Assembly (NCBI GenBank): GCA_964605725.1
Contig: CAZSDQ010000002.1
Span: 5,600-69,599 of the forward strand
DNA from: an uncultured Candidatus Saccharibacteria bacterium
GTDB lineage: Bacteria; Patescibacteriota; WWE3; UBA101185; UBA10185
Direction of reading: 5' to 3'
Length of the DNA: 64,000 bases
Shown here: piece after piece, positions 3,890 to 16,740 of the stretch
Numbering within the stretch: the first letter of the stretch is position 1
How the letters are laid out: each line of letters begins with the position of its first letter
The notes under the pieces: model-generated
What the model was told of the DNA's origin: nothing
What the model saw: the letters and a program-made list of their open reading frames with translations, nothing else
The model's database searches: none
Translations under genes and position numbers: made by a program

Positions 3890-5872
3890 ATGCAAGGTAC
3901 TATCTATTTAAGCAAAATTAAAAAATTTGTTGGTCAGGAAGAAGAACCTACTGAATCTGATAATTTAAAAGAAGACGAACAAGAAGGAAATTCGTCAGAT
4001 TCAGGTGTGTATGAAGCTGAAGATCTATCCAAAGAAGATGAAAATAAAATGGTTTGGAAACCCGGGTTTCTTCAGCCTAAAGAGAAGTTGGAAGAAGAAG
4101 CAGATAAACTATCGGAATATAAAAACTACACAAAACCTCCTGTACAACCCAAACCCTCTTTTGTGGAGGAGGTGTCTGTTGAGGATAATAAAATTCAAGA
4201 AGATTTTAACAACATGCCTTCCAATTTTTCAGAACCTTTTAAAAAATACCTTATAGATTTCAAGAAAAGTGTTAAGGAGGAGGATAAAAAATCTTCAAAT
4301 CCTATATACGTTGACGAGATTGCTTCCAGGGTAGCGAAAGTCTACGAGACGGTGAGAAGAATAATTGATTGGAAAGAAGAACATCTCATCAGAAGGGCGG
4401 CAATTGAAAGAGTTCTTAAAAGAAGATTTGTTTCTAAGGTTTACGGTATAAGTATTATCCCTGATGTAAAACCTGCTGAAGCAGCAGAGCCTTTTATCTT
4501 GGAATTAATAAGAAGCGGATATTTCCCTAACGGTAAAATTGATAAAGAGAAGACTCCGGAGATTCAAAATTGCTTGGAAAAATATCTCTATATATTGAAT
4601 AACGCTGTAGTGATAAATGACGAGGAATCTAAAACAAAAAAAGAACAAAAAGCAGGAGTTAAGAAAAAAATTAATTTTTATAACTGGGTAATAGAAATTG
4701 CTGCTTGTGAGATAGAAGAGATATTGGACGCTCCTTTGAGAGAATATGCCTTGATGAATTTGATGACAGAATCTTTGATGCAAAGAATAAAAATAATTCC
4801 TGAAAATGAAATTTCCGAAGAAGATAAATATATACAAACTTATATATCTGTTCACAGGACTTTATATAATTTAGACAAACCGATTACAATTTTCCACCTG
4901 TTGAAATACAGATATCCAGAGTTTTTTACCTCATCAGAATATTTACCTGAATTTACTTCAAAAATATTTGATATTTGGAATGAGATTGAAGATTACTTGA
5001 ATTATAAAAAAGGTTCAGAATTTTTCAGAGTAGCTGAAAAATATGATGCTGCATACCTACTTATAGGTGATTCAATGAATTCCATGGAGAAGGAAGTGGA
5101 AATTATTGAGAAAAAGGTTTCTGATAAAGGAATTTTTATTCAAGCCGTTGAAAATAAATATAACGAAAGATTGGCTACTTTGAAAAAAAGATTATCTAAA
5201 CTTGCAATATTTTCTACGCTTTCAATCTTTGTTGCCGGTTTAGCTAGTTTACTGCTTTTTGAAATTCCAATTGCAAGCTGGGTTCGGGGTTATTTCAGCC
5301 CATGGTCAATAGTAGCTGATCTTGCTATACCTACCGCATTGATGTTTATCCTTGTCTGGATGATTAAGCCACCTTCAGGAAATAATTTAGAATCAGTAAA
5401 AGAAGAGGTTTCAAAAGTTGTTTACAAAGTAGATGAGTTAGATATTTACGAAGTTAAGCTTAAGAAAAAAATTAAGAAATTTCTCAATTTTATATTCGCA
5501 ATAATTTACCTAACAGGAGGCATGATATCTTTGTACGGTATATATTGGGTTTTTAAGATTGCAGATGTTCCATGGACTTCTCTGTACATAAACACCGGAA
5601 ATGTGGCTATGGTAGTTTTTTCTGCCATGGTAATAAGACAAAGATCAAGAGAGTTAACAATAGTTGAAAAGGAAAATATTATCGAATTTATTCTGGATTT
5701 CTTCTCAATACCTCTGGCAAAAATAGGTGGGTGGTTATCAGCTAAATGGAAAGAATACAACATCGTAAGTGTGTTTTTTATAGCTTTGGTTGATTTCCCC
5801 TTTTCAAGTTTTGTCGCAATGATAGAAAGCTGGAGAAATTTTATAAAAGAGAAAAGGTCAGAATTAAACTAA
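3890..5872 (+). CDS. hypothetical two-part protein: ~430-aa acidic soluble N-terminal region plus a C-terminal 5-6 TM domain
   Basis: Long ORF with consistent codon usage and hydrophobic helices in the C-terminal third. No motif I recognise. Confidence 0.5.
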   Translation: MQGTIYLSKIKKFVGQEEEPTESDNLKEDEQEGNSSDSGVYEAEDLSKEDENKMVWKPGFLQPKEKLEEEADKLSEYKNYTKPPVQPKPSFVEEVSVEDNKIQEDFNNMPSNFSEPFKKYLIDFKKSVKEEDKKSSNPIYVDEIASRVAKVYETVRRIIDWKEEHLIRRAAIERVLKRRFVSKVYGISIIPDVKPAEAAEPFILELIRSGYFPNGKIDKEKTPEIQNCLEKYLYILNNAVVINDEESKTKKEQKAGVKKKINFYNWVIEIAACEIEEILDAPLREYALMNLMTESLMQRIKIIPENEISEEDKYIQTYISVHRTLYNLDKPITIFHLLKYRYPEFFTSSEYLPEFTSKIFDIWNEIEDYLNYKKGSEFFRVAEKYDAAYLLIGDSMNSMEKEVEIIEKKVSDKGIFIQAVENKYNERLATLKKRLSKLAIFSTLSIFVAGLASLLLFEIPIASWVRGYFSPWSIVADLAIPTALMFILVWMIKPPSGNNLESVKEEVSKVVYKVDELDIYEVKLKKKIKKFLNFIFAIIYLTGGMISLYGIYWVFKIADVPWTSLYINTGNVAMVVFSAMVIRQRSRELTIVEKENIIEFILDFFSIPLAKIGGWLSAKWKEYNIVSVFFIALVDFPFSSFVAMIESWRNFIKEKRSELN

Positions 5873-6398: not shown

Positions 6399-7391
6399 TT
6401 GGCTATTTTAAAAGGATGCCATATAATAAATTACATGGCTGCCTATTTAATAAAATTTTTCTTCGGGGTAATTATTTTACTTTTAGCCACGCAGTTATTT
6501 GTAAAACTTGCGGTTAAACTTTCTGAAGTTTTTAGGTTATCTCCATTAGTAATAGGTATGTTAGTGGTATCTTTTGGCACTACGTTACCCGAACTTTCAG
6601 TTTCAATCACGTCTTCAAGCTCGGGAAGTGTCGGTTTAGCCGCCGGAACCATTCTTGGTTCAACGATCGTAAATTTTATATTAGTGTTACCCGCGGCAAT
6701 TTTATTGGGAAAAGATATAAGAATTGGTACTACAAAGACCCAGAAGAATGCAATGGTGTTAATTATCGCAACGATTTTGTTTGTTTTACTACAGCAGCTG
6801 CCTATCCCACCGTTTGTTTCAGGATTAATCTTATTGTTTGGGTTGTTAATTTCAAATTATCTTGAATATAGATGGGGAGCGTTGGGAAGACTTCAGGAAG
6901 ATAAAACAGTAATAGATTTATTTAAAAAAAGAAAAATTACACCCGACCTGATTTTTGGTTTATTTTTTTCGGTTATTTGCGTTACTGTGGGTGGTCTTTT
7001 AGTAGTGAGATCCATGGAAGATTTAGCTGTTATATCAGGATATTCCACCACTGTTTTAGGTTTAACTTTAACAGGAATTGCCACCTCCCTGCCCGATATT
7101 TTTACAGCAGTGATGAGTCAGAAAAAGGACGAGGATAAGTTAACCATAGGGCATATCACAGGCGGTAGTCTGTACAATCTTTTATTTATTGGCGGAGTCA
7201 CTAACGTTTTAGGAGCTGATATGAATTTGGGTATTACTGAGACGCTTTTTTTATTCGGAACAGTATTTTTATTTCTTTTAATAATAAGATTTTATAAGGA
7301 TAAAAATATACCTAAGTGGGTAGGTCTGGTGTTACTGTTAATTTTCTTTTTGTACATATACACCACTTCTTTTTTAGGTAAAAATTTTTAA
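6399..7391 (+). CDS. Ca2+/Na+ (cation:Ca2+) antiporter, CaCA/YrbG family
   Basis: Duplicated alpha-repeat signatures GTTLPELSVSITSS and GIATSLPDIFTAVMS. About 10 TM helices. Confidence 0.75.
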   Translation: MAILKGCHIINYMAAYLIKFFFGVIILLLATQLFVKLAVKLSEVFRLSPLVIGMLVVSFGTTLPELSVSITSSSSGSVGLAAGTILGSTIVNFILVLPAAILLGKDIRIGTTKTQKNAMVLIIATILFVLLQQLPIPPFVSGLILLFGLLISNYLEYRWGALGRLQEDKTVIDLFKKRKITPDLIFGLFFSVICVTVGGLLVVRSMEDLAVISGYSTTVLGLTLTGIATSLPDIFTAVMSQKKDEDKLTIGHITGGSLYNLLFIGGVTNVLGADMNLGITETLFLFGTVFLFLLIIRFYKDKNIPKWVGLVLLLIFFLYIYTTSFLGKNF

Positions 7392-7486
7392 TTTAAATTT
7401 TACCTCGCTCTCGTTTTATGTTTCTGATACCCTGAATTTATTAATCAGGCATTGACGCAGTAATCAAAAATTAATAGACTAAGTTA

Positions 7487-10357
7487 ATGCCCAAAAACCT
7501 AAATGTTCTTTTTTCACCAAAATCTATAGCTATTGTCGGAGCTTCAAGATCACCTAAAAAGGTTGGGGCGGTAATTCTTAAAAATCTCATTGAATCAGGA
7601 TACAAGGGTTTTTTATATCCAATTAATCAGGAAGCCAAGACTATTAGCAAAATTAAATGTTATAAAAGAATTCTAGATCTTCCGGAGACACCTGATTTAG
7701 TTATTATTTCAATCCCCTCACCCTTTGTTTCCCAGATATTGAAGGAAGTGGGTGAAAAAGGTTCTAAGAATGTAGTAATTATTTCAGCAGGGTTTAAAGA
7801 AACAGGTGCGGAAGGAGAAGCACTTGAAAAAGAAATTATTTCCATTTCAAAAGATTTTGGAATAAACATTTTAGGGCCTAATTGTTTAGGTTTTGTAAAT
7901 AACGAAAATAATGTTAATGCTACATTTGGAAAAGCTAATTCCCTTAACGGTAACTTAAATTTTATAACCCAGTCGGGGGCTATTGCCACTTCGCTTTTTG
8001 ACTGGTGTAGTTCGGTAGGAATTGGTTTTTCAAATTTTGTGACTTTGGGAAATAAAGCAGATATTAATGAAAACGATGTTATGGAATATTTATTTGAAAA
8101 ATATCACGGCTCTTTAACTTCCCTGTCTTATGAAAATGATTCTAGTACTCATCCGTTGGGTTTATATCTGGAATCGATTGTTAATGGAAGGGGGTTTTTG
8201 GAAATATGTAAAAAATTTACCAAACACGAACCTGTTTTTATAATCAAGCCGGGTAAAAGCCAGGCCGCCGCAAGTGCAATGCAGTCACATACTGGTGCTA
8301 TTGCTGGGGCTGATGATGTTTTTGATTCAGCTTTAAAAGAAGCTGGGGTTATAAGATGCAATTCCTTAGAGGATTTTTTCGATTTATCAAAAGCATTTTC
8401 ATGGGCCAACTTACCTTCGGGATCTAGAGTGGCAATTATTTCTAATGCCGGAGGCCCTGCAGTTATAAGTGCTGACAGCGTTGTAGAAAATGGCTTAGAG
8501 ATGGTAGATCTCGGGGAAGAAACAAGAAAAAAATTATTAGAAGTACTTCCAAGATCTGCGAGCATTATGAATCCGGTAGATGTCTTGGGTGATGCTTTGG
8601 CCCAAAGATATGCTGATGCATCGGAGATAGTTCTTAAAAATGAAAACTGCGATGCTTTGGTAGTGCTTCTAACTCCACAAATAATGACACAGATAAAAAA
8701 GACTGCAGAGATGATTGGCGATGTTTCCAAGAAATACCAAAAACCGGTTTTATGTTCATTTATCGGAGGGTCTCTAGTTGGCGATGGTGAGAAAATTCTA
8801 AACAATATGCATATCCCATCATTTAGATTTCCCGAAAGAGCGATATACGCTTTAGGTAAAATGCGGGAGTTTAAGAAAAGACAAGAAGAAAACACATCTA
8901 CCCAGATGGATATTTATCAGGTTTTAAATTTTGATGTTATGCCTGAAAAGGTTAATAAATTGGTAAAAGAAGCTATCGATAAGAAGCAACCTGCCCTTAA
9001 CAACATTGAATCTGATATTGTGATTTCAGCAATTGGTATAAACACACCCCCAACTTTGGGTGTGGAATCCTTAGAAGATGCCAAAAAATTTGCCATTGTT
9101 CAAGGTTATCCCTTGGTTTTAAAACTCTCTTCTCCAGGACTACTACATAAGAAAAATGTGGGCGGGGTTGTTTTGAATATTAAAAATGAGGATGAACTTG
9201 AAGAGGCATGGGATATTTTGGAAAGAAAAAAACGTAGTTTATCTCCAGAAATATTAGCTACAACTAACTTTCAAGTACAGAGAGAAGTTCCTTCGGGAAC
9301 CGAGGTAATTGTGGGAGTAAAAAGTGACCCGACGTTTGGACATTTTATGCTTTTTGGAGCCGGAGGTTCATTAGCTGAGTTAATTTCTGATAAAAATATC
9401 GCGCTTCTTCCGATGGATCTTAACAAAGCCAAAAAACTTGTAGAAGGTTCGAAAATTTTTAAATCATTAAAAGATAAAGATGGAAAAACAGATTATGCCT
9501 TAGAAAAACTTTATGAACTTATGGTTAAAGTAAGCAAGGTTGTTGAGGGTGAGCCCGGAATTCAGGAGATAGAAATAAATCCTGTGATTATAAATATTAA
9601 CGATGTGTGGGCAGTAGACACAAAGGTAATTTTAAGAGAAAATAAACAGATGCCCCAGGGCCCGAAGTTTAAAACTGCAAAAGTATTAAAAGCTGAAAAC
9701 CTAACTCCAAAAATGCACTTTTTGGAATTCGAAACAGAGGAAGAATTTAAAGTAATTCCCGGACAATATTTAAGTGTAAAGGTTTCAGATTCCAGAGTAA
9801 ATTGCTACTCTGTTGCTGGTTTTAAAAATCCTAATAGATTTAATTTACTCGTAGATTCAACTCCCGGTGGTCCCGGATCAAAGTTTTTTGAAAGTTTAAA
9901 GGTTGGGGATAAGATGACGTTTTTAGGGCCTTTTGGAAATTTCACATTAAAACAAGACGAAGATGTTGAAAATATGCTTTTCTTTGCAACAGGTTGTGGT
10001 ACAGCTCCATTAAAATTTATGTTAGAAAGCGCTTTGAAGGAAGGTAAAAAAGATAGAAAAATAAAACTTTATCTTGGGGTAAATAATTATTGCGATGTTT
10101 TTTTTAAAGATTATTTTAGTGATTTGCAAAAAGAATATGAAAATTTTTCTTATGAAATTGCGGTAAATAATCCTGATCCAAAATGGGATGGCCCCACAGG
10201 TTTTATAACTGAATTGGTAAAAAAAGATTTCTCAGACGCTTCAAAATGTTCCGCTTATTTGTGCGGGAATAAATTTATGATTGAGGATGTTTCGAAAGTT
10301 TTAATAGAAAGAGGTTGCCCGGAGGAAAGGATATATTTCGAAAAATATGGTAAATAA
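7487..10357 (+). CDS. acetyl-CoA synthetase (ADP-forming), fused alpha/beta, with a C-terminal FNR-like FAD/NAD(P)-binding oxidoreductase domain
   Basis: N-terminal CoA-binding domain (SIAIVGASRSPKKVGAVILKNL, GPNCLGF), phosphohistidine loop (MQSHTGAIAG) and an ATP-grasp beta domain. The last ~250 aa carry FNR-family motifs: RVNCYSVAG (RxYS-like), GGPGSKFFESLKVGD (GGxxS..L), GCGTAPL (GxGxxP) and C-terminal CGNKFMIEDV. Confidence 0.8.
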   Translation: MPKNLNVLFSPKSIAIVGASRSPKKVGAVILKNLIESGYKGFLYPINQEAKTISKIKCYKRILDLPETPDLVIISIPSPFVSQILKEVGEKGSKNVVIISAGFKETGAEGEALEKEIISISKDFGINILGPNCLGFVNNENNVNATFGKANSLNGNLNFITQSGAIATSLFDWCSSVGIGFSNFVTLGNKADINENDVMEYLFEKYHGSLTSLSYENDSSTHPLGLYLESIVNGRGFLEICKKFTKHEPVFIIKPGKSQAAASAMQSHTGAIAGADDVFDSALKEAGVIRCNSLEDFFDLSKAFSWANLPSGSRVAIISNAGGPAVISADSVVENGLEMVDLGEETRKKLLEVLPRSASIMNPVDVLGDALAQRYADASEIVLKNENCDALVVLLTPQIMTQIKKTAEMIGDVSKKYQKPVLCSFIGGSLVGDGEKILNNMHIPSFRFPERAIYALGKMREFKKRQEENTSTQMDIYQVLNFDVMPEKVNKLVKEAIDKKQPALNNIESDIVISAIGINTPPTLGVESLEDAKKFAIVQGYPLVLKLSSPGLLHKKNVGGVVLNIKNEDELEEAWDILERKKRSLSPEILATTNFQVQREVPSGTEVIVGVKSDPTFGHFMLFGAGGSLAELISDKNIALLPMDLNKAKKLVEGSKIFKSLKDKDGKTDYALEKLYELMVKVSKVVEGEPGIQEIEINPVIININDVWAVDTKVILRENKQMPQGPKFKTAKVLKAENLTPKMHFLEFETEEEFKVIPGQYLSVKVSDSRVNCYSVAGFKNPNRFNLLVDSTPGGPGSKFFESLKVGDKMTFLGPFGNFTLKQDEDVENMLFFATGCGTAPLKFMLESALKEGKKDRKIKLYLGVNNYCDVFFKDYFSDLQKEYENFSYEIAVNNPDPKWDGPTGFITELVKKDFSDASKCSAYLCGNKFMIEDVSKVLIERGCPEERIYFEKYGK

Positions 10358-12089
10358 AGATGATGTAGTGTCAGTAAAAATAGGAGGTCCGGCAGGAACA
10401 GGTGTTAAATCTGTAGGTTTGATGTTGGCAAAAATAGCAGCAAGGTCGGGTTACCAAATTTGTGATAACACAGAGTATCCGTCTTTAATTAGAGGTGGTC
10501 ACAATGTGATGCAAGTAAATTTTTCAGAAAGAGAAGTTACATCACCAAGAGTAAAGTCTGATCTTCTAATAGCTTTTGATCAGTTAACAATTGACCTGCA
10601 TTTTTCAGAAATCGAAAGCGGGGGAGGAATAATTTTTGATTCAAATTCAAAAATGGATGTTTCAAAAGTTTCAAAAGACGTTTCCCTTTACGGTATTCCT
10701 TTAAAAAAACTAGCATTTGAAGCCGGTGAAAAAAATATCTTTTTAAATATTGTGGCTTTGTCTTCCGCAATTTGTCTTTTAGGTGGAAATATTGAAACAT
10801 TTAAAAAATTAATCGAAGAAGAATACGGTGATAAAGGAGAAAAGATTATTGAGGCTGACAAAAAAGCCGCTGATTTAGGATACAACTTTGTTTTGGATAA
10901 TTTTAAAAATGACCTTCACGATTATATGACTGTGATTGATTCTTTTAGTTCCCCTGCTCCTTATATGGTTATAAGTGGGAATGAGGCGGCCGCTTTAGGT
11001 GCTATATCCGCAGGTATGCAGTTTGCCGCAATATACCCAATGTCTCCCATCAACAATATCCTCCATGTCTTGGCCGCCAATCAGCAGAAATTTGGTTACA
11101 TTTACAAACAACCAGAAGATGAGATATCGGCAATAAACATGTCCATCGGCGCGTCTTTTGCTGGAGTTCGTTCTATGACCGCAACTTCAGGAGGTGGATT
11201 TTGTTTGATGACAGAGGCTTATGGACTTGCGGGAATTACCGAAACACCTTTGGTAATAGTTGAGGGGATGAGAGGTGGCCCTGCCACCGGTCTTCCTACT
11301 TGGAGTGGGCAAGGTGACCTTCAAATGATTTTGCACTCTCATCAAGACGAATTTCCAAGATTAGTTTTAGCTCCTGGAGATGTTGAAGAAACTTACAATC
11401 TCACAGCAAAAGCTTTTGATTTGGCTGACAAATATCAAACTACCGTAGTTGTTTTGTTAGATAAAAATATTTGTGAAAACGACAGAACCGTTTTATTTCC
11501 GGATGTTTCAAATATAAAAATTGATAGAGGAAAGTTTACAAAAGAAAAAGTTGAAGATTTCAAAAGATATGAATTTTCAGAAGACGGTGTTTCTACAAGA
11601 AGTATTCCAGGAGTTGGAAATTATTTTCTTGCTAACTCTGATGAGCATGATGAATACGGTTATTCCACAGAAGAAATTGAACTTCGAAATAAAATGATGA
11701 AAAAAAGAATGCAGAAGCTTATTACATGCGCTCAAAACGACATGCTAGAACCAGAAGTTTTTGGTCCTGAGAATGCTGATATAACGGTACTTTCGTGGGG
11801 TAGTAATAAAGGAAGTATTATCGAAGCTGTTAAACGTTTTTCTAATGTAAATTATGTTCACGTTACATGGATGAATCCTTTTCCCGCAGAATTTTTAACA
11901 AAGGTTTTATCTAAGGCTAAGCATGTAGTTGATATTGAGTGTAATTATTCCGGCCAACTAGCAGATCTTGTAAGAGAAAAAACAGGAATTGATATAAAAG
12001 ATAGATATTTAAGATCAGACGGCAGGGTGATTTATCCGGAGGAAATAGTAGAGAAATTAAATTCAGTGGAAGGAGTTAAAAAAATATGA
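10347..12089 (+). CDS. 2-oxoacid (pyruvate/2-oxoglutarate):ferredoxin oxidoreductase, fused gamma-alpha subunit
   Basis: N-terminal gamma-domain motif GGPAGTGVKSVGLMLAKIAARSGY followed by alpha-subunit regions (GNEAAALGAISAG, YPMSPI, TETPLVIV). Overlaps the upstream gene by 11 nt. Confidence 0.8.
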   Translation: MVNKDDVVSVKIGGPAGTGVKSVGLMLAKIAARSGYQICDNTEYPSLIRGGHNVMQVNFSEREVTSPRVKSDLLIAFDQLTIDLHFSEIESGGGIIFDSNSKMDVSKVSKDVSLYGIPLKKLAFEAGEKNIFLNIVALSSAICLLGGNIETFKKLIEEEYGDKGEKIIEADKKAADLGYNFVLDNFKNDLHDYMTVIDSFSSPAPYMVISGNEAAALGAISAGMQFAAIYPMSPINNILHVLAANQQKFGYIYKQPEDEISAINMSIGASFAGVRSMTATSGGGFCLMTEAYGLAGITETPLVIVEGMRGGPATGLPTWSGQGDLQMILHSHQDEFPRLVLAPGDVEETYNLTAKAFDLADKYQTTVVVLLDKNICENDRTVLFPDVSNIKIDRGKFTKEKVEDFKRYEFSEDGVSTRSIPGVGNYFLANSDEHDEYGYSTEEIELRNKMMKKRMQKLITCAQNDMLEPEVFGPENADITVLSWGSNKGSIIEAVKRFSNVNYVHVTWMNPFPAEFLTKVLSKAKHVVDIECNYSGQLADLVREKTGIDIKDRYLRSDGRVIYPEEIVEKLNSVEGVKKI

Positions 12090-12940
12090 CACTAGAAGAA
12101 TTGAAAACTCCATATACTCCTAACTGGTGTCCTGGATGTGGAAATTTTAATATTTGGGCTGCTTTTAAAAATGCGGCAGTAAAAGAAGGTTGGGATAATA
12201 CTAATACAGCTTTAGTTGCAGGAATAGGTTGCCACGGACATATTTTAAATTTTGTAAAACTTACATCTTTTGAAGGTTTGCATGGTAGGGCAATTCCTGT
12301 GGCTTCCGGTCTAAAAATGGCAAACCACAGACTTAATGTTTTTGCTCATGTTGGCGATGGTGACTGTTTAGGTGAAGGTGGTAATCATTTTGTTCATGCG
12401 GCCCGAAGAAATCATAATATTACAGTACTTTTGCACGATAATGCTCTATATGCTTTGACTGCCGGACAGACCTCTCCTGCTACTGGAAAAGGTGTGAAAA
12501 CTAAATCTACTCCTGCAGGAAACCCCGATGAGCCGATTTATCCTATGGCTTTGGCAATTGCCTCTGGGGCTACGTTTGTTGCTCGGGCTTATTCTGGTGA
12601 CATGCCAAAACTTACAGAGCTAATTATTGAGGCTAATAAACACAGGGGTTTTGCGTTTATAGACATTCTTCAGCCGTGTGTCACTTTTAATAAAATATGT
12701 ACACATGCAATGTTTCTACAAAATACTTATTATCTTGGAAAAGACTATGATCCGACAAATAAAAAAGAAGCTTTTGAGAAAGCTCACGAGTTTGGGGAAA
12801 AGAAAATTCCCGTTGGTATTTTTTACAGAGAAGAAAAACCAACCGTAGAGGATGGTTACCCACAAATTTCAGAAATTCCGCTGGTTAATCAAAAACCAAA
12901 ATTAAACAGCCTTACTGATTTATTCAAAAAATATACTTGA
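12086..12940 (+). CDS. 2-oxoacid:ferredoxin oxidoreductase beta subunit (TPP-binding)
   Basis: N-terminal WCPGCG motif and TPP-binding GDGDCLGEGGNHF. Start is translationally coupled to the alpha-subunit gene. Confidence 0.8.
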   Translation: MTLEELKTPYTPNWCPGCGNFNIWAAFKNAAVKEGWDNTNTALVAGIGCHGHILNFVKLTSFEGLHGRAIPVASGLKMANHRLNVFAHVGDGDCLGEGGNHFVHAARRNHNITVLLHDNALYALTAGQTSPATGKGVKTKSTPAGNPDEPIYPMALAIASGATFVARAYSGDMPKLTELIIEANKHRGFAFIDILQPCVTFNKICTHAMFLQNTYYLGKDYDPTNKKEAFEKAHEFGEKKIPVGIFYREEKPTVEDGYPQISEIPLVNQKPKLNSLTDLFKKYT

Positions 12941-12984
12941 TAAGGTAGTATTTAATTAGTCAGATAATTTAAAAAGGATTAAAA

Positions 12985-13230
12985 ATGGAAGATAAAGAAG
13001 TTCAAATTGGAAAGTATAAAGTAAAAGTTTTAAGAGATGTTTGTATTAGCGCCGCCTCTTGTGTAGCTTTTTCCCCGGCTGTTTTTGAATTAGACGGAGA
13101 GTCAAAAGCTGTTATAAAAGATGGGGCGACCGATGAAGAAACAAACATTTTACTTGCAGCTCAATCATGCCCAACAGGTGCTATTGTAATAACTGATGCC
13201 GAGACAGGTGAGAGAGTTTGGCCTAAGTAA
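12985..13230 (+). CDS. small single-cluster ferredoxin (Fer4_13/15-like, 3-Cys type)
   Basis: 81 aa. Pattern DVCISAASC...ELDGESKAV...AAQSCPTGAIVI matches the CxxxxxC...CP single [3Fe/4Fe-4S] ferredoxin family. Sits directly downstream of the OFOR genes. Confidence 0.65.
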   Translation: MEDKEVQIGKYKVKVLRDVCISAASCVAFSPAVFELDGESKAVIKDGATDEETNILLAAQSCPTGAIVITDAETGERVWPK

Positions 13231-13323
13231 GAAGTTTTTTTCAAATATAGCATTTTTCGTAAAACAGCTACCTTACTTGTATTCAGTATTGCCAAAATAC
13301 TTTACCAAATGTAAAAAGAAAGT

Positions 13324-13725
13324 ATGAAGATTTATGTATTCGGAAATGAAGATTTAGATTTTGATAATAAAGCCATCATTGTTTCGAAAAAACTTGAAAA
13401 AGCCATAAAAAATTGTGATTTTATTTATGTTAAGCCAAATCAAGACCTTCCATTTGTGGGTGAGGAAGAAGTTGTAATTATGGATACAATTGAAGGGATT
13501 GAGGATATAACGGTAATAAATAATGATCAGGTTAAGAATATATCACTTGAAAAAAGAACTACCGCACACGATTTTGATTTAGGCTTCCAACTCAAGTATT
13601 TAAAAAAGATAGGGAAGATTGGAAAAGTAACAATAATTGGTCTGCCGATGCAAAAAGACGTAGATTATTTACGAATCCAATCAATCTTAAGGAAGTTAGT
13701 TGCGCAGGACATGCAAGGATCGTAG
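13324..13725 (+). CDS. hydrogenase maturation endopeptidase (HycI/HoxW-like)
   Basis: 133 aa. Segments VVIMDTIEG..ITVI, KRTTAHDFDLGFQLKYL and VTIIGLPM align to the HycI pattern (LLIVDA..., MTTHNMPLNYL, VIFLGIQP). Convergent with the hydrogenase large subunit gene. Confidence 0.55.
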   Translation: MKIYVFGNEDLDFDNKAIIVSKKLEKAIKNCDFIYVKPNQDLPFVGEEEVVIMDTIEGIEDITVINNDQVKNISLEKRTTAHDFDLGFQLKYLKKIGKIGKVTIIGLPMQKDVDYLRIQSILRKLVAQDMQGS

Positions 13726-14966
13726 GCTCTGATTATACTTTCTGCATCAACTTTTAATTTTTCTTCGTCTTTATCTAAGTTTTCATTAAAATACTTTTTA
13801 AGGTCGTTCTCTATTGCTATTTGATTCTGAGAAGTTGGTACAATCACATCGTAATCAACGACTATACCTTTTTCATCTACTACAGCTTTGTGATACAGTG
13901 TGCCTCTAGGAGCTTCTATTACGCCAATCCCAACCCCAGCTTTTAGTGTTTTTTTAATTGGCTTTTCATCAACGATTTTTATGTTTTTCAAAATTTCTAT
14001 TGCATCATCTACACAATGAAGTATTTCTATAGCTTGTGCCAAATTGTTGTGATAAATATTTTTCGAAGGAAACACATCAAGAAATTCTTTTGTGTTTTCT
14101 AAAGTTCTTGGATTTAGCTGGTCTTTATTTAAATTAATTCTTGCTAAAGCGCCTAAAACATAATTTCCGTGATTATCTGAAAAAACGTACCCTTCTGATT
14201 GTGAATATGGAACTACCACAACATCAAAATGTTCTAAGAATTTATCAGGAGGTATTTTTCTACCGTCTAAACTAATCAGAGTACCCTCTAGAAAATCAAA
14301 TTTATTTTCATTTCTTAAAGCTACATAATCTACATCTTGTTCAAGAGAAGCACCGTAATCGTAAAAAGCTTTAATTCCCCTTAATACTTGAGGCCTTATT
14401 TTTTCCAATCTTTCCAAAAGTTTCGGGAACCTTGATTCGTCAGGTAGTTTTAAAAATCCTCCGATAGTTGGTATAGGAGCATGTATAGCCGCACCGATAA
14501 CTACTTCTGATATATCAGTACCGAGTTGTTTTATATCAAAAGAATCATGAAGAAGAGTATGGCCCAAATCACCGTGGTCGTCGGGAATATCCAAAATAGA
14601 ATCCAATCCTAATAAATCCGGTAGAACAAAAAAATATAAATGAAGGGCATGGTCTCTAATTATTAGAGCGTCATAAGCTAATCTTCTTAAAGTTTTTGTT
14701 TGTTCTGTAACTTCAATTCCCTGCGAATTTTCTATTGCTTTGATGGTAGCAAAAAGATGAGCAACAGAGCACGTTCCGCATATTCTTGATAAAAATGACG
14801 GAGCAGAGATCAGTGGTTTTTTCTTTACAGCGTCAGTATAAAATCGTCTAGAGTCCTGGATCTTAAATTTCACATCAGTTACCTTTCCGTTTTCAATTGT
14901 GACGTCAAGGCCCGCAGAGCCTTCGATTTTAGTGATATTTTCGATTGTGATATTTCCGCTGTGCAT
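13665..14966 (-). CDS. [NiFe]-hydrogenase large (alpha) subunit, group 3-like
   Basis: N-terminal L1 motif RICGTCSVAH and C-terminal DPCMSCATN followed by a 9-aa extension. At 433 aa it matches the size of group 3b alpha subunits. Confidence 0.8.
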   Translation of the reverse strand: MHSGNITIENITKIEGSAGLDVTIENGKVTDVKFKIQDSRRFYTDAVKKKPLISAPSFLSRICGTCSVAHLFATIKAIENSQGIEVTEQTKTLRRLAYDALIIRDHALHLYFFVLPDLLGLDSILDIPDDHGDLGHTLLHDSFDIKQLGTDISEVVIGAAIHAPIPTIGGFLKLPDESRFPKLLERLEKIRPQVLRGIKAFYDYGASLEQDVDYVALRNENKFDFLEGTLISLDGRKIPPDKFLEHFDVVVVPYSQSEGYVFSDNHGNYVLGALARINLNKDQLNPRTLENTKEFLDVFPSKNIYHNNLAQAIEILHCVDDAIEILKNIKIVDEKPIKKTLKAGVGIGVIEAPRGTLYHKAVVDEKGIVVDYDVIVPTSQNQIAIENDLKKYFNENLDKDEEKLKVDAESIIRAYDPCMSCATNFLKIDWIRK

Positions 14967-14969
14967 TTT

Positions 14970-15473
14970 TTATATTATATTAAACAACTTTAAATATTTA
15001 TCCATTACGGATAGGAATTTTGTCACATTCATCGGACACCCCTCTATCTTATCGTCTACTTTTACCACATCTTCGAGTTTTTGTACCTTTTTATTATAGT
15101 CAAAATGCTCTAAATACCATCTAATTCTGTCATCAATATCTTTTTCTTCAAAAGCATTTCTGCTGGCCGAGGGCATTCCTGTACAGGCGCATTGTCCTAC
15201 AGCTACAACATATTTTGCATTATCTCTTATTTTTTTTACTTCATCTTCTTGAGTCTTTGATGAGATAGCTCCTTCTACAAATGCTACATCAAGGTCTTCC
15301 GATTCGTTTTTGGTTTTTAAAGGTCTGATGTATTTGAAATCTATGAGTTTCTTCCACTCGTCAAAGTGTTTATTTAAAAGTTCAGTAAAAAGTATAGTGC
15401 TGTCCTCACTGCACGTAAAACAAAACCATCCGATTGCTAATTTTTTATTTTTTTGAATTTGGGAGGCTTCCAT
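14970..15473 (-). CDS. [NiFe]-hydrogenase small (delta) subunit
   Basis: Motifs CFTC, GQCACTGMP and GCPM typical of NuoB-like hydrogenase small subunits. Lies immediately upstream of the large-subunit gene on the same strand. Confidence 0.7.
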   Translation of the reverse strand: MEASQIQKNKKLAIGWFCFTCSEDSTILFTELLNKHFDEWKKLIDFKYIRPLKTKNESEDLDVAFVEGAISSKTQEDEVKKIRDNAKYVVAVGQCACTGMPSASRNAFEEKDIDDRIRWYLEHFDYNKKVQKLEDVVKVDDKIEGCPMNVTKFLSVMDKYLKLFNII

Positions 15474-15690
15474 TTTTTAATTTTTTTAATACCGGAACAT
15501 TAAATTTGTACTTATCCAGTATTAAATAAACAATCTCAACTATACCCAAGGTGTTGAAGAACAAAATAACTGCAAAAAATATTTTATGATTATTTTTTGA
15601 TGCTCTCCAAAGGGTGTAGCCTTTCAAACCAACAAGTATAAGCGTTAGTAAAGTAAACAAAGCAGGGTTCATATTTTTTATAAATTCCAT
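15445..15690 (-). CDS. small hypothetical membrane protein (2 TM)
   Basis: ORF only; two predicted TM helices. Confidence 0.3.
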   Translation of the reverse strand: MEFIKNMNPALFTLLTLILVGLKGYTLWRASKNNHKIFFAVILFFNTLGIVEIVYLILDKYKFNVPVLKKLKNGSLPNSKK

Positions 15691-15780
15691 AGTTGAATTG
15701 TATCAGATTTATTTTTACTTATTTAAGATAAGTTAATGTGTTTGTTTGTAAATATAGATTTTTAGTTTTATCATTTATGT

Positions 15781-16740
15781 ATGAAAAAAACATTCTCAAT
15801 ATCAGAAGCCATTTCGTTCGGTTGGAGAACTTTCAAGTCAAATTGGAAGTTTTGGATTGTTGCATCTTTGATAACCGGTATGGCCACCGGGTCCTCAAGT
15901 TTACCAGGTGTCGGTAATTTAAATAGATCAAGTTCTACACAGACTTCTTCTATTACTAAAACGGTAGGTCGGGATTTACCTTACCCAAAGGAACCGATTA
16001 TTTATGATAAGGTACTTGGAGCTAGTACCGCTGTCCAAAAATTACCTATGTCAGATAAAGGACAATCTTCAAACTCGATGTTTATATTAATTCCTTTTGT
16101 AATCATTACAGTCGTCGGATTTGTAGCTGTTGGTGTTATAGGAATATTAGTATCAACAGCACTTAGAATGGGTTATGTAAATCTAACTTTGGATTCTGTC
16201 AGAAATAAACAGGTTTATTACAAAACAATATTGAATCAGATGAGTTTAAAAAAAGCATGGAGATTTTTGATAGCGAATTTTCTTGTTACATTAAACATAA
16301 TAGTTGGCTTAATTCTCTTTATAATCCCAGGAATTTTATATGCTCTAAAATACTATTTTGTTTCGTACTTAATTGTTGATAAAGATATGAAACCAAGAGA
16401 GGCTATGAAGGAGAGTGGTAGATTAACAAAAGGTGTGAGGTTTAAACTCGTTTCTTTAACAGTCGTTTATTTTCTAATTGCTATTTTAGGATTTTTAGTT
16501 TTTGGGGTTGGCGTAATTCCTGCTTCTATAGTTATTTCAATTGCTAATGCTTATATTTTTAATAAACTTCTTGAACAGAGTGAACCCGCGGTTGTTCCTC
16601 CAAGTCCTATAATTCCCGATGTACCTGCTATTGAGACGCCACTTCCTCCATCTATTGAAGTACCTTCGATTAATTCAGGAAATCTTTTGGCTGAAAACCA
16701 AACTCTTAATGAGAGTTCATCTATAAAAACAGAAAATTGA
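15781..16740 (+). CDS. hypothetical integral membrane protein (DUF975-like topology) with a Pro-rich C-terminal tail
   Basis: ORF with 5-6 TM helices and an ST-rich loop; followed by a hairpin terminator. Confidence 0.5.
   Translation: MKKTFSISEAISFGWRTFKSNWKFWIVASLITGMATGSSSLPGVGNLNRSSSTQTSSITKTVGRDLPYPKEPIIYDKVLGASTAVQKLPMSDKGQSSNSMFILIPFVIITVVGFVAVGVIGILVSTALRMGYVNLTLDSVRNKQVYYKTILNQMSLKKAWRFLIANFLVTLNIIVGLILFIIPGILYALKYYFVSYLIVDKDMKPREAMKESGRLTKGVRFKLVSLTVVYFLIAILGFLVFGVGVIPASIVISIANAYIFNKLLEQSEPAVVPPSPIIPDVPAIETPLPPSIEVPSINSGNLLAENQTLNESSSIKTEN

Follow-up and report, generated by a model that had tools for sequence, protein, structure and literature searches.

What does a flavin oxidoreductase module do at the end of an enzyme that makes ATP? 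The question is raised by a gene in a 64,000-nucleotide stretch of DNA (the window; positions 5,600 to 69,599 of contig CAZSDQ010000002.1, assembly GCA_964605725.1) from an uncultured bacterium of the WWE3 lineage of Patescibacteria. Its product, here called ACD-FNR, joins an ADP-forming acyl-CoA synthetase (ACD) to an FNR-type module, and the neighbouring genes encode a 2-oxoacid:ferredoxin oxidoreductase (OFOR), a small ferredoxin and a [NiFe]-hydrogenase of the 'hyd2' type. The reading that we favour, with slightly more confidence than doubt, is that ACD-FNR acts as an NAD(P)H:ferredoxin oxidoreductase that connects OFOR and NAD(P)H with hyd2. The flavin module, together with the ferredoxin, would make up for the redox partner that hyd2 is missing. 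On this reading the 956-aa chain consists of two independent enzymes. The parts of the gene are as follows.

7487..10357, plus strand: ACD-FNR fusion gene, 956 aa plus stop, an uninterrupted open reading frame (ORF) with Pfam support
7487..9634, plus strand: ADP-forming acyl-CoA synthetase, fused alpha-beta unit, residues 1-716 (Pfam; match to PDB entry 8wzu)
8279..8308, plus strand: phosphohistidine loop M265-G274 (MQSHTGAIAG, H268), with invariant residues and low pLDDT
9635..9670, plus strand: inter-domain linker, residues 717-728, LRENKQMPQGPK (AlphaFold2 pLDDT below 50 at 720-725)
9671..10354, plus strand: FNR-type module, residues 729-956 (Pfam, PDB search, AlphaFold2, Foldseek)

Seven Pfam domains were found in the protein, each above its gathering cut-off: CoA_binding and CoA_binding_2 at residues 10-138 (CoA_binding_2 at 12-138), Succ_CoA_lig at 155-304, Ligase_CoA_2 at 315-450, ATP-grasp_5 at 496-716, FAD_binding_6 at 732-819 (36.2 bits against a cut-off of 21.1) and NAD_binding_1 at 833-936 (60.9 bits against 22). 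All seven were common to every one of the 120 best matches from a search of 5.8 billion proteins drawn from NCBI, JGI, ENA and Logan assemblies; these homologues were 936-990 aa long and 51-100% identical to the window protein, those with named sources coming from WWE3, Roizman-, Woese- and Levyibacteria. When the C-terminal module alone was used to seed a survey of GTDB species representatives, 80 loci were found, the complete WWE3 RAAC2 genome being among the sources. ACD and FNR were fused in 62 of the 83 loci surveyed, among them the complete genome CP006914.1 (L013). That two genes were joined artificially by an assembly error or a frameshift, an idea for which there is prior suspicion and the existence of split forms in some lineages, is refuted by this conservation across assemblies, since the window ORF is unbroken and the same architecture recurs down to 51% identity, over four data sources and in a complete genome; we give it practically no weight. 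The preliminary description of this DNA had presented the fusion as a departure from standard architectures and called for a search of related genomes; far from being a one-off oddity, ACD-FNR is a large conserved Patescibacteria family, already in public databases under generic names such as 'acetate--CoA ligase family protein'.

The component parts are all of known kinds: an ACD, a minimal FNR, a two-subunit OFOR, a single-cluster ferredoxin and a 3b-type hydrogenase. No description of an ACD-FNR fusion was found in the literature searched, which was mostly without subscription journals and so gives no proof of novelty. Three points appear to be undescribed in that literature: that ACD-FNR forms a conserved family, that it belongs to the hyd2 cluster, and the proposal that FNR plus ferredoxin are the missing hyd2 partners.

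The FNR module is laid out as an FAD beta-barrel (729-816) followed by an NAD(P) Rossmann domain (829-951). In the full-length AlphaFold2 model there is one disordered linker, at 720-725, the rest being confident, and the module modelled by itself reached a pLDDT of 89. A PDB sequence search with the module gave NqrF as the best match (5.7e-26), then methane monooxygenase (MMO) reductase and benzoate dioxygenase reductase; the gamma subunit of Pyrococcus furiosus sulfhydrogenase (SHI) reached only 6.6e-10. Foldseek likewise placed NqrF first (2r6h, E 4e-22, TM 0.80), with carbazole dioxygenase ferredoxin reductase, the P450 reductase GcoB, cytochrome b5 reductase and Fre among the other matches and SHI gamma at rank 32 (TM 0.77). 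The NCBIfam ranking of FNR relatives agreed with the order from the PDB and fold searches, none scoring above its curated cut-off, and the BenC model was matched over its FNR part only (positions 106-330 of 333). As judged from sequence and predicted fold, the nearest relatives of the module are NqrF, BenC and MmoC.

The motifs quoted in the preliminary description were all found, NCYSVAG at 772-778, GGPGSKFF at 794-801, GCGTAPL at 836-842 and CGNKFM at 926-931. Among the homologues Y774, S775, G795, G797, S798, T835, G836, G838, G927 and M931 are invariant, C926 is kept in 116 of 120, and 97 of 120 end in F or Y. The conserved FNR set reads x-Y-S, GxGS, TGxGxxP, CG..M and a C-terminal aromatic, the Arg of the canonical RxYS being the one exception. 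The description had gone further and called the domain FNR/PyrK/HydG-type. 'FNR-like' is right, on the evidence of profile searches, PDB sequence matches and fold, and 'PyrK/HydG-type' is wrong, because there is no Fe-S domain after the NAD domain: FAD_binding_6 and NAD_binding_1 scored above cut-off as expected, whereas Pfam gave no DHODB_Fe-S_bind domain or cysteine cluster 3' of the NAD domain, and the protein ends at 956, 5 residues past the last FNR strand. Its alignment to SHI gamma (9nez_C) stops at residue 244 of 292 of that chain. The label was also rejected on scores far below curated cut-offs: 47.4 against 650 for HydG, 67.7 against 600 for ShyC, 77.9 against 395 for PRK08345, and at most 48 for the PyrK models, whose cut-offs are at least 219.

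The ACD half had been described as a complete alpha/beta unit with the loop SHTGAIAG, and both statements were borne out. Five subdomains were recognized by Pfam, the loop lies at 267-274, and the best PDB match, 4-hydroxybutyrate-CoA ligase [ADP-forming] of Nitrosopumilus maritimus (8wzu, E 4.8e-123), aligns over residues 8-702. M265, S267, H268, T269, G270 and A273 are invariant in 120 of 120 homologues, and pLDDT is low at 267-273, as expected of a mobile, swinging loop. H554, in the ATP-grasp motif 'LLHKK', is likewise invariant, and we take it to be the equivalent of the second His in P. furiosus ACD. The ACD part thus looks complete and catalytically competent. Homologues in the PDB also include the acetyltransferase Pat (9it0, 9isq) and DddX (7cm9), with E 5.7e-89 for 9it0 and 5.9e-59 for 7cm9. 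The catalytic His is still in place in the ACD part, which makes it probable that this part is a true synthetase. Its acyl substrate is not assignable, since it scores below every NCBIfam equivalog cut-off (AcCoA-syn-alpha, 503.8 bits against 567; HydDutCoALig, 500.7 against 1300), and since the OFOR paired with it is a two-subunit enzyme of broad type, pyruvate is a possible starting acid, as are other 2-oxoacids.

Natural variants show what the flavin module can do without. In three loci (L067, L066 and L079) ACD and FNR are split. The ACD gene of L067 stops after the ATP-grasp domain (at the equivalent of ~719) and, after a 10-bp gap, is followed by a 230-aa FNR gene whose start, MPDFKTA, aligns with GPKFKTA of the window protein; the natural split site therefore coincides with the disordered 720-725 linker. 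In L066 and L079 the two genes lie 1.7-3 kb apart. Free FNRs of 230-249 aa occur in six further close-family loci (L051, L061, L063, L068, L072 and L075), directly upstream of OFOR in five of them, the exception being the truncated L075; no ACD gene was found within up to 10 kb upstream of any of the six. More distant paralogues of the module (33-37% identity) in L078, L080, L082 and L083 are each followed directly by a ferredoxin of the pattern CxxAxxC..CP. The surroundings of two of these pairs were examined, and both belong to a SUF operon for Fe-S assembly, with SufB, SufD, SufS, SufU, a DsbA-like protein and FeS_assembly_P in L078 (2131-9959) and with SufS and SufU in L082 (7700-11024), a classic setting for a reductase/ferredoxin pair that donates electrons.

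Taken over the fused, split, free and SUF contexts, the constant partner of this FNR subfamily is ferredoxin, not ACD, which is a frequent yet dispensable fusion partner. It follows from the split and ACD-less forms that the function of the flavin module is independent of its attachment to the ATP-forming enzyme.

Two further observations concern related proteins. The SUF-operon pairs suggest that Fe-S biogenesis in Patescibacteria has an electron supply of its own, passed from NAD(P)H to ferredoxin. A second, very divergent NAD_binding_1 protein (223-245 aa, 20-25% identical to the FNR module) is encoded in L004/L044 (16979-17680, minus strand) and in L035, L037, L045, L061, L104 and L124, its gene lying between those for OFOR beta and ferredoxin in the opposite orientation; as it is without the RxYS and GxxS motifs, it may not bind flavin.

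The genes that follow ACD-FNR in the window are these.

10347..12089, plus strand: OFOR fused gamma-alpha subunit, 580 aa (Pfam POR, POR_N, PFOR_II; NCBIfam OAFO_sf, 613 against 483 bits)
12086..12940, plus strand: OFOR beta subunit (thiamine pyrophosphate, [4Fe-4S]), 284 aa (Pfam TPP_enzyme_C, PFO_beta_C; PorB_KorB, 315 against 262 bits)
12985..13230, plus strand: small single-cluster ferredoxin, 81 aa, CxxAxxC...CP, 3 Cys, predicted [3Fe-4S] (Pfam Fer4_13)

The operon of ACD-FNR with a fused gamma-alpha OFOR, OFOR beta and a 3-Cys ferredoxin thus stands as first described: Pfam and sequence agree, the ORFs overlap by 11 nt (ACD-FNR/gamma-alpha) and 4 nt (gamma-alpha/beta), and the ferredoxin gene begins 44 nt further on. 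Neither ORFs nor Pfam revealed a gene for an OFOR delta subunit (2x[4Fe-4S]) in the cluster, and the enzyme is classed from its sequence as the two-subunit KorAB/archaeal a-b type. The arrangement is general. In close-family loci with enough flanking sequence, the FNR module was followed by OFOR gamma-alpha in 59 of 62, and OFOR beta was present in 58 of 60, ferredoxin in 54 of 59 and the hydrogenase large subunit in 33 of 44; the CxxAxxC/CP pattern was found in 59 of 61 cluster ferredoxins. The common order is ACD-FNR, OFOR gamma-alpha, OFOR beta, ferredoxin, EamA, DUF6390 (minus strand) and a HycI-like gene, continuing after the HycI-like gene with the hydrogenase large and small subunits (minus strand) and then HypC. 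The EamA transporter and DUF6390 are conserved between ferredoxin and the HycI-like gene in most related loci (L001, 15729-17723). No second FNR and no homologue of EamA, DUF6390 or HypC was found in the 64-kb window, whose lineage has lost EamA and DUF6390. A promoter and terminator scan of 7300-15800 gave 17 promoter-like sites against 29.7 in shuffled controls and no convincing terminators, so that operon boundaries are not drawable from it.

Beyond the ferredoxin, and largely on the other strand, lies the hydrogenase locus.

13324..13725, plus strand: HycI-like hydrogenase maturation protease (Pfam HycI, a weak 24.7 bits against a cut-off of 23; conserved in the cluster)
13665..14966, minus strand: group 3b-related [NiFe]-hydrogenase large subunit ('hyd2' type), 432 aa (PDB matches, motifs)
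14970..15473, minus strand: shortened hydrogenase small subunit, 166 aa, with proximal-cluster cysteines only

The best PDB matches of the large subunit were the Thermococcus kodakarensis enzyme 5yxy (4.9e-61) and the alpha subunit of P. furiosus SHI. It has kept intact NiFe cysteine motifs, RICGTC and DPCMSC, both invariant. The alignment of the small subunit (cysteines C18, C21, C95, C97 and C146) to SHI delta is confined to residues 47-150 of the latter's 261. No beta or gamma hydrogenase gene was found at the locus, in agreement with the earlier remark that the neighbouring hydrogenase lacks a gamma subunit; the 432-aa large and 166-aa small subunits are all that is present. These properties match the published account of hyd2, a CPR-specific clade (CPR, the candidate phyla radiation, or Patescibacteria) with a shortened small subunit of mean 164 aa, HypC nearby and neither beta nor gamma (Jaffe et al., 2020; PMC7304191), and by these features we assign the window hydrogenase to it. 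That study found hyd2 to be without subunits connecting it to NAD(P)H and left its partners unknown, while recording near hyd2 NAD-binding matches on the other strand, a PF07992 family ('fam013') and an Fe-S family (PMC7304191). Canonical four-subunit enzymes are reported from Berkel- and Moranbacteria (PMC10811913). Kantor et al. (2013) gave the ACD, OFOR and 'type 3B-like' hydrogenase of WWE3 separately, with no note of a fusion or link.

The association also holds when approached from the hydrogenase. A metagenome scan seeded with the large subunit recovered the small subunit in 62 of 62 loci (mean 175 aa). In the 20 loci with at least 6.5 kb beyond the large subunit, an FNR module was present within 10 kb in 16 (15 fused, one split), ferredoxin within 10 kb in 16, including all 16 FNR-containing loci, and OFOR in 14. 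L131 and L151 carry ferredoxin directly followed by ACD-FNR, plus hyd2, with no OFOR genes between; the association of FNR, ferredoxin and hydrogenase is therefore possible without OFOR in the cluster.

The two split loci with separated genes contain an insert of their own (8270-9964 in L066, 4461-7269 in L079) encoding an NDH-2-like Pyr_redox_2 flavoprotein (407-430 aa) and, on the opposite strand, a flavodoxin (157 aa), the pair being identified by Pfam in L066 and by sequence resemblance in L079. The NDH-2-like gene is probably the PF07992 'fam013' of Jaffe et al., and together with the ferredoxin or OFOR beta it plausibly explains both their PF07992 and their Fe-S family.

The hydrogenase genes show further peculiarities. 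The HycI-like and large-subunit genes run towards each other and share exactly 61 nt at their 3' ends in 102 of 106 loci (window 13665-13725); such strictness in a convergent coding overlap, kept across very divergent lineages, is unusual. NiFe hydrogenases usually have His or Arg before the protease-cleaved tail. The large subunit here ends DPCMSCATN-FLKIDWIRK (window 13665-13694), with an invariant Asn at that position. Directly upstream of the small-subunit gene, on the same strand, a DUF5652 gene (15445-15690, minus strand) overlaps the small-subunit start by 29 nt. Its presence, together with the closest homologues, points to Patescibacteria close to WWE3 as the origin of the window.

From these data we propose the following scheme. 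OFOR would convert pyruvate or another 2-oxoacid to acyl-CoA, reducing the 3-Cys ferredoxin, and the ACD part would turn the acyl-CoA into acid and ATP. The FNR part would exchange electrons between ferredoxin and NAD(P)(H), a ferredoxin reactivity suggested by gene linkage to the 3-Cys ferredoxin. Ferredoxin would then be the electron hub of the cluster, reoxidized either by FNR, giving NAD(P)H, or by hyd2, giving H2; with the flow reversed, glycolytic NAD(P)H could be vented as H2 at low H2 pressure. It is the [3Fe-4S] cluster of the partner ferredoxin, at about -280 mV, that receives electrons from archaeal OFORs of this two-subunit type. Such a potential would put the carrier near the NAD(P)H couple and make H2 evolution feasible at low H2 pressure only. 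In this arrangement FNR and ferredoxin would supply in trans the roles of the group 3b beta and gamma subunits and of the lost C-terminal half of delta. The fusion itself looks like the joining of operon neighbours, fixing stoichiometry or co-localization, rather than a mechanistic requirement. Directly shown are what the domains are, how well their catalytic and cofactor motifs are kept, that the fusion is real and how it is distributed, which variants are split or free, and that the genes are linked when approached from either side; the ferredoxin as substrate, the choice of NADH or NADPH, the direction of electron flow, the tie to the hydrogenase and any physical complex are inferred. Two ideas in the preliminary description, that the flavin module serves redox balancing coupled to substrate-level phosphorylation and that it stands in for the absent gamma subunit, both fit the evidence and merge in the favoured scheme; what falls away is any dependence of that function on physical attachment to the ACD.

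Several points weigh against this scheme. The Arg of the RxYS motif is replaced by Asn in 91 of the 120 homologues, which could weaken or alter flavin binding, and the preference for NADH or NADPH is unreadable from residues 862-871 and 890-905 (including 894-899), which are too variable. A [3Fe-4S] ferredoxin may be too positive in potential for H2 evolution unless the H2 pressure is very low. About a quarter of family loci (11 of 44) are without a hydrogenase within 10 kb, and four of the 20 hyd2 loci are without FNR nearby, so the hydrogenase link is not universal. Gene linkage is in any case no proof of physical or electron-transfer interaction. Finally, if fusion confers no mechanistic benefit, its prevalence (62 of 71 classifiable loci) needs another explanation.

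Could the flavin module instead deliver electrons to the hydrogenase with no ferredoxin between them? The FNR would then dock directly on hyd2 alpha-delta as a gamma-like diaphorase, its FAD by the proximal cluster, with the ACD carried into the complex. We consider this improbable. The FNR-hyd2 gene linkage that holds both ways is as expected, the fold search picked up SHI gamma as a relative (rank 32, TM 0.77), and a small subunit without medial and distal clusters obliges a partner to approach the proximal one. Set against this, the module has no [2Fe-2S] domain such as a true gamma carries and scores far below the HydG and ShyC cut-offs, its gene belongs to the OFOR operon, on the strand opposite to the hydrogenase operon, the 11 family loci with no hydrogenase nearby keep FNR, OFOR and ferredoxin together, and the SUF-operon paralogues pair with ferredoxin alone.

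Alternatively, ACD-FNR, OFOR and a ferredoxin bound as a subunit might form a stable complex working as a 2-oxoacid dehydrogenase that uses NAD(P)+ and is coupled to the synthesis of ATP, the hydrogenase being a loose overflow valve. Such an assembly would correspond, in prokaryotes and spread over several proteins, to pyruvate:NADP+ oxidoreductase (PNO), an enzyme of Euglena and Cryptosporidium cited in PMC6856725. OFOR is indeed the tightest neighbour (95-97% of loci), the overlapping or abutting genes suggest co-translation, and fusion would tether the reductase beside the enzyme that consumes OFOR's other product. L131 and L151, however, have ferredoxin, ACD-FNR and hyd2 without OFOR, and the lineages that have no ACD retain the FNR-OFOR pairing, so ACD is not needed as a scaffold. 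We regard this alternative, too, as unlikely.

Less likely still is a general NAD(P)H:flavin reductase, or a reductase of other acceptors (Fre-like, with flavodoxin, rubredoxin or O2-detoxifying targets), unrelated to ferredoxin or hydrogen. The free relatives are, at ~232 aa, the size of Escherichia coli Fre, and one is called 'NAD(P)H-flavin reductase' in IMG, a generic term and the sole name returned by the cluster look-up; the structural match to Fre is good (1qfj, target TM 0.88), the Arg-to-Asn change in RxYS could mean a loosely bound flavin, and the flavodoxin and NDH-2-like genes of L066 and L079 are inserted beside FNR. Yet the NCBIfam Fre model gave 89 bits against a cut-off of 230, the C-terminal aromatic, x-Y-S and GxGS typical of tight FAD binders are retained, and co-occurrence with a 3-Cys ferredoxin is near-universal in three paralogue contexts. 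This constancy of ferredoxin, with the dispensability of ACD, also disfavours the view that the FNR is a redox sensor tuning ACD via NAD(P)H, or the ACD a Pat-like acyl-CoA sensor regulating the reductase. There is precedent for ACD-like scaffolds with C-terminal additions, Pat and DddX being homologous; nevertheless conservation extends to the catalytic His and to each of the five ACD subdomains, the FNR motifs are those of active enzymes, the linker is short and disordered, and the halves also occur as separate genes, with FNR found where ACD is not. We think a regulatory role very improbable.

A bolder version of the ferredoxin-hub scheme would place ACD-FNR, the two-subunit OFOR, the 3-Cys ferredoxin and hyd2 alpha-delta in one physical 'fermentation terminal' complex, FNR and ferredoxin taking the place of the group 3b beta and gamma subunits and of half of delta; we consider it a rather doubtful possibility. 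If it were true, a single complex would convert 2-oxoacid, ADP and Pi to acid, CO2, ATP and H2 with the NAD(P)H pool equilibrated, which would constitute a new modular build of NAD(P)-linked hydrogenase and would name the missing hyd2 partners. Patescibacteria are abundant, mostly uncultured and minimal in metabolism, and their fermentative redox balance is poorly understood; with the FNR module and ferredoxin as candidates, an open question on their hydrogen metabolism becomes directly testable. The fused, split and free forms make a natural 'Rosetta stone' series to guide expression constructs. Automated annotation of the ACD-FNR family misses a redox function, a systematic gap.

Elsewhere in the window, a 660-aa ORF between rpoD and the TspO gene (3890-5872, plus strand) gave no Pfam match at E<=0.01.

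Comparison with known systems places each half of the protein in a familiar class and sets the whole apart. In its order of five subdomains and its phosphohistidine loop the ACD half resembles the fused alpha-beta ACDs 8wzu and Candidatus Korarchaeum ACD1 (4xyl), from which the window protein differs by an extra C-terminal flavoenzyme of 228 aa. The Pat/PatZ acetyltransferases and DddX share a homologous ACD-like body of ~700 aa and set a precedent for added or altered functions; in contrast to Pat/PatZ, the added domain here is an FNR, not a GNAT, and the catalytic His is kept.

The FNR half would share with NqrF, BenC, MmoC and carbazole dioxygenase reductase the passage of electrons from NAD(P)H through FAD to a one-electron Fe-S carrier. 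Those proteins carry a plant-type [2Fe-2S] domain in cis, whereas the N-terminus of the window protein is an ACD and the predicted Fe-S carrier is the separate 3-Cys single-cluster ferredoxin. With SHI gamma (HydG/ShyC of P. furiosus; 9nez/9nf0 chain C) it has in common the FNR-like two-domain FAD/NAD(P) fold, a gene beside a group 3b-type large subunit and a likely role as entry or exit point of NAD(P)(H); unlike SHI gamma, it is without the C-terminal [2Fe-2S] domain, is distant in sequence (6.6e-10, against 5.7e-26 for NqrF), has no accompanying beta subunit, belongs to an OFOR operon of opposite orientation and is joined to an ACD.

In PNO, a P450-reductase-type FMN+FAD module is fused to PFOR itself. 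The functional analogy lies in a flavin/NADP module built into the step from pyruvate to acetyl-CoA, with electrons ending on NADP+; the window system has instead a minimal FNR without a flavodoxin domain, fused to ACD, and a separate ferredoxin and two-subunit OFOR. By this analogy we would rank PNO as the closest functional analogue, with a different architecture. The closest known counterpart of the hydrogenase locus is the hyd2 cluster of CPR bacteria (PMC7304191), which likewise has a large subunit, a shortened small subunit of ~164 aa, no beta or gamma and, in the loci related to the window, HypC nearby. To that account the present analysis adds that the NAD-binding matches beside hyd2 are the FNR module, usually fused to ACD, in a conserved OFOR-ferredoxin operon.

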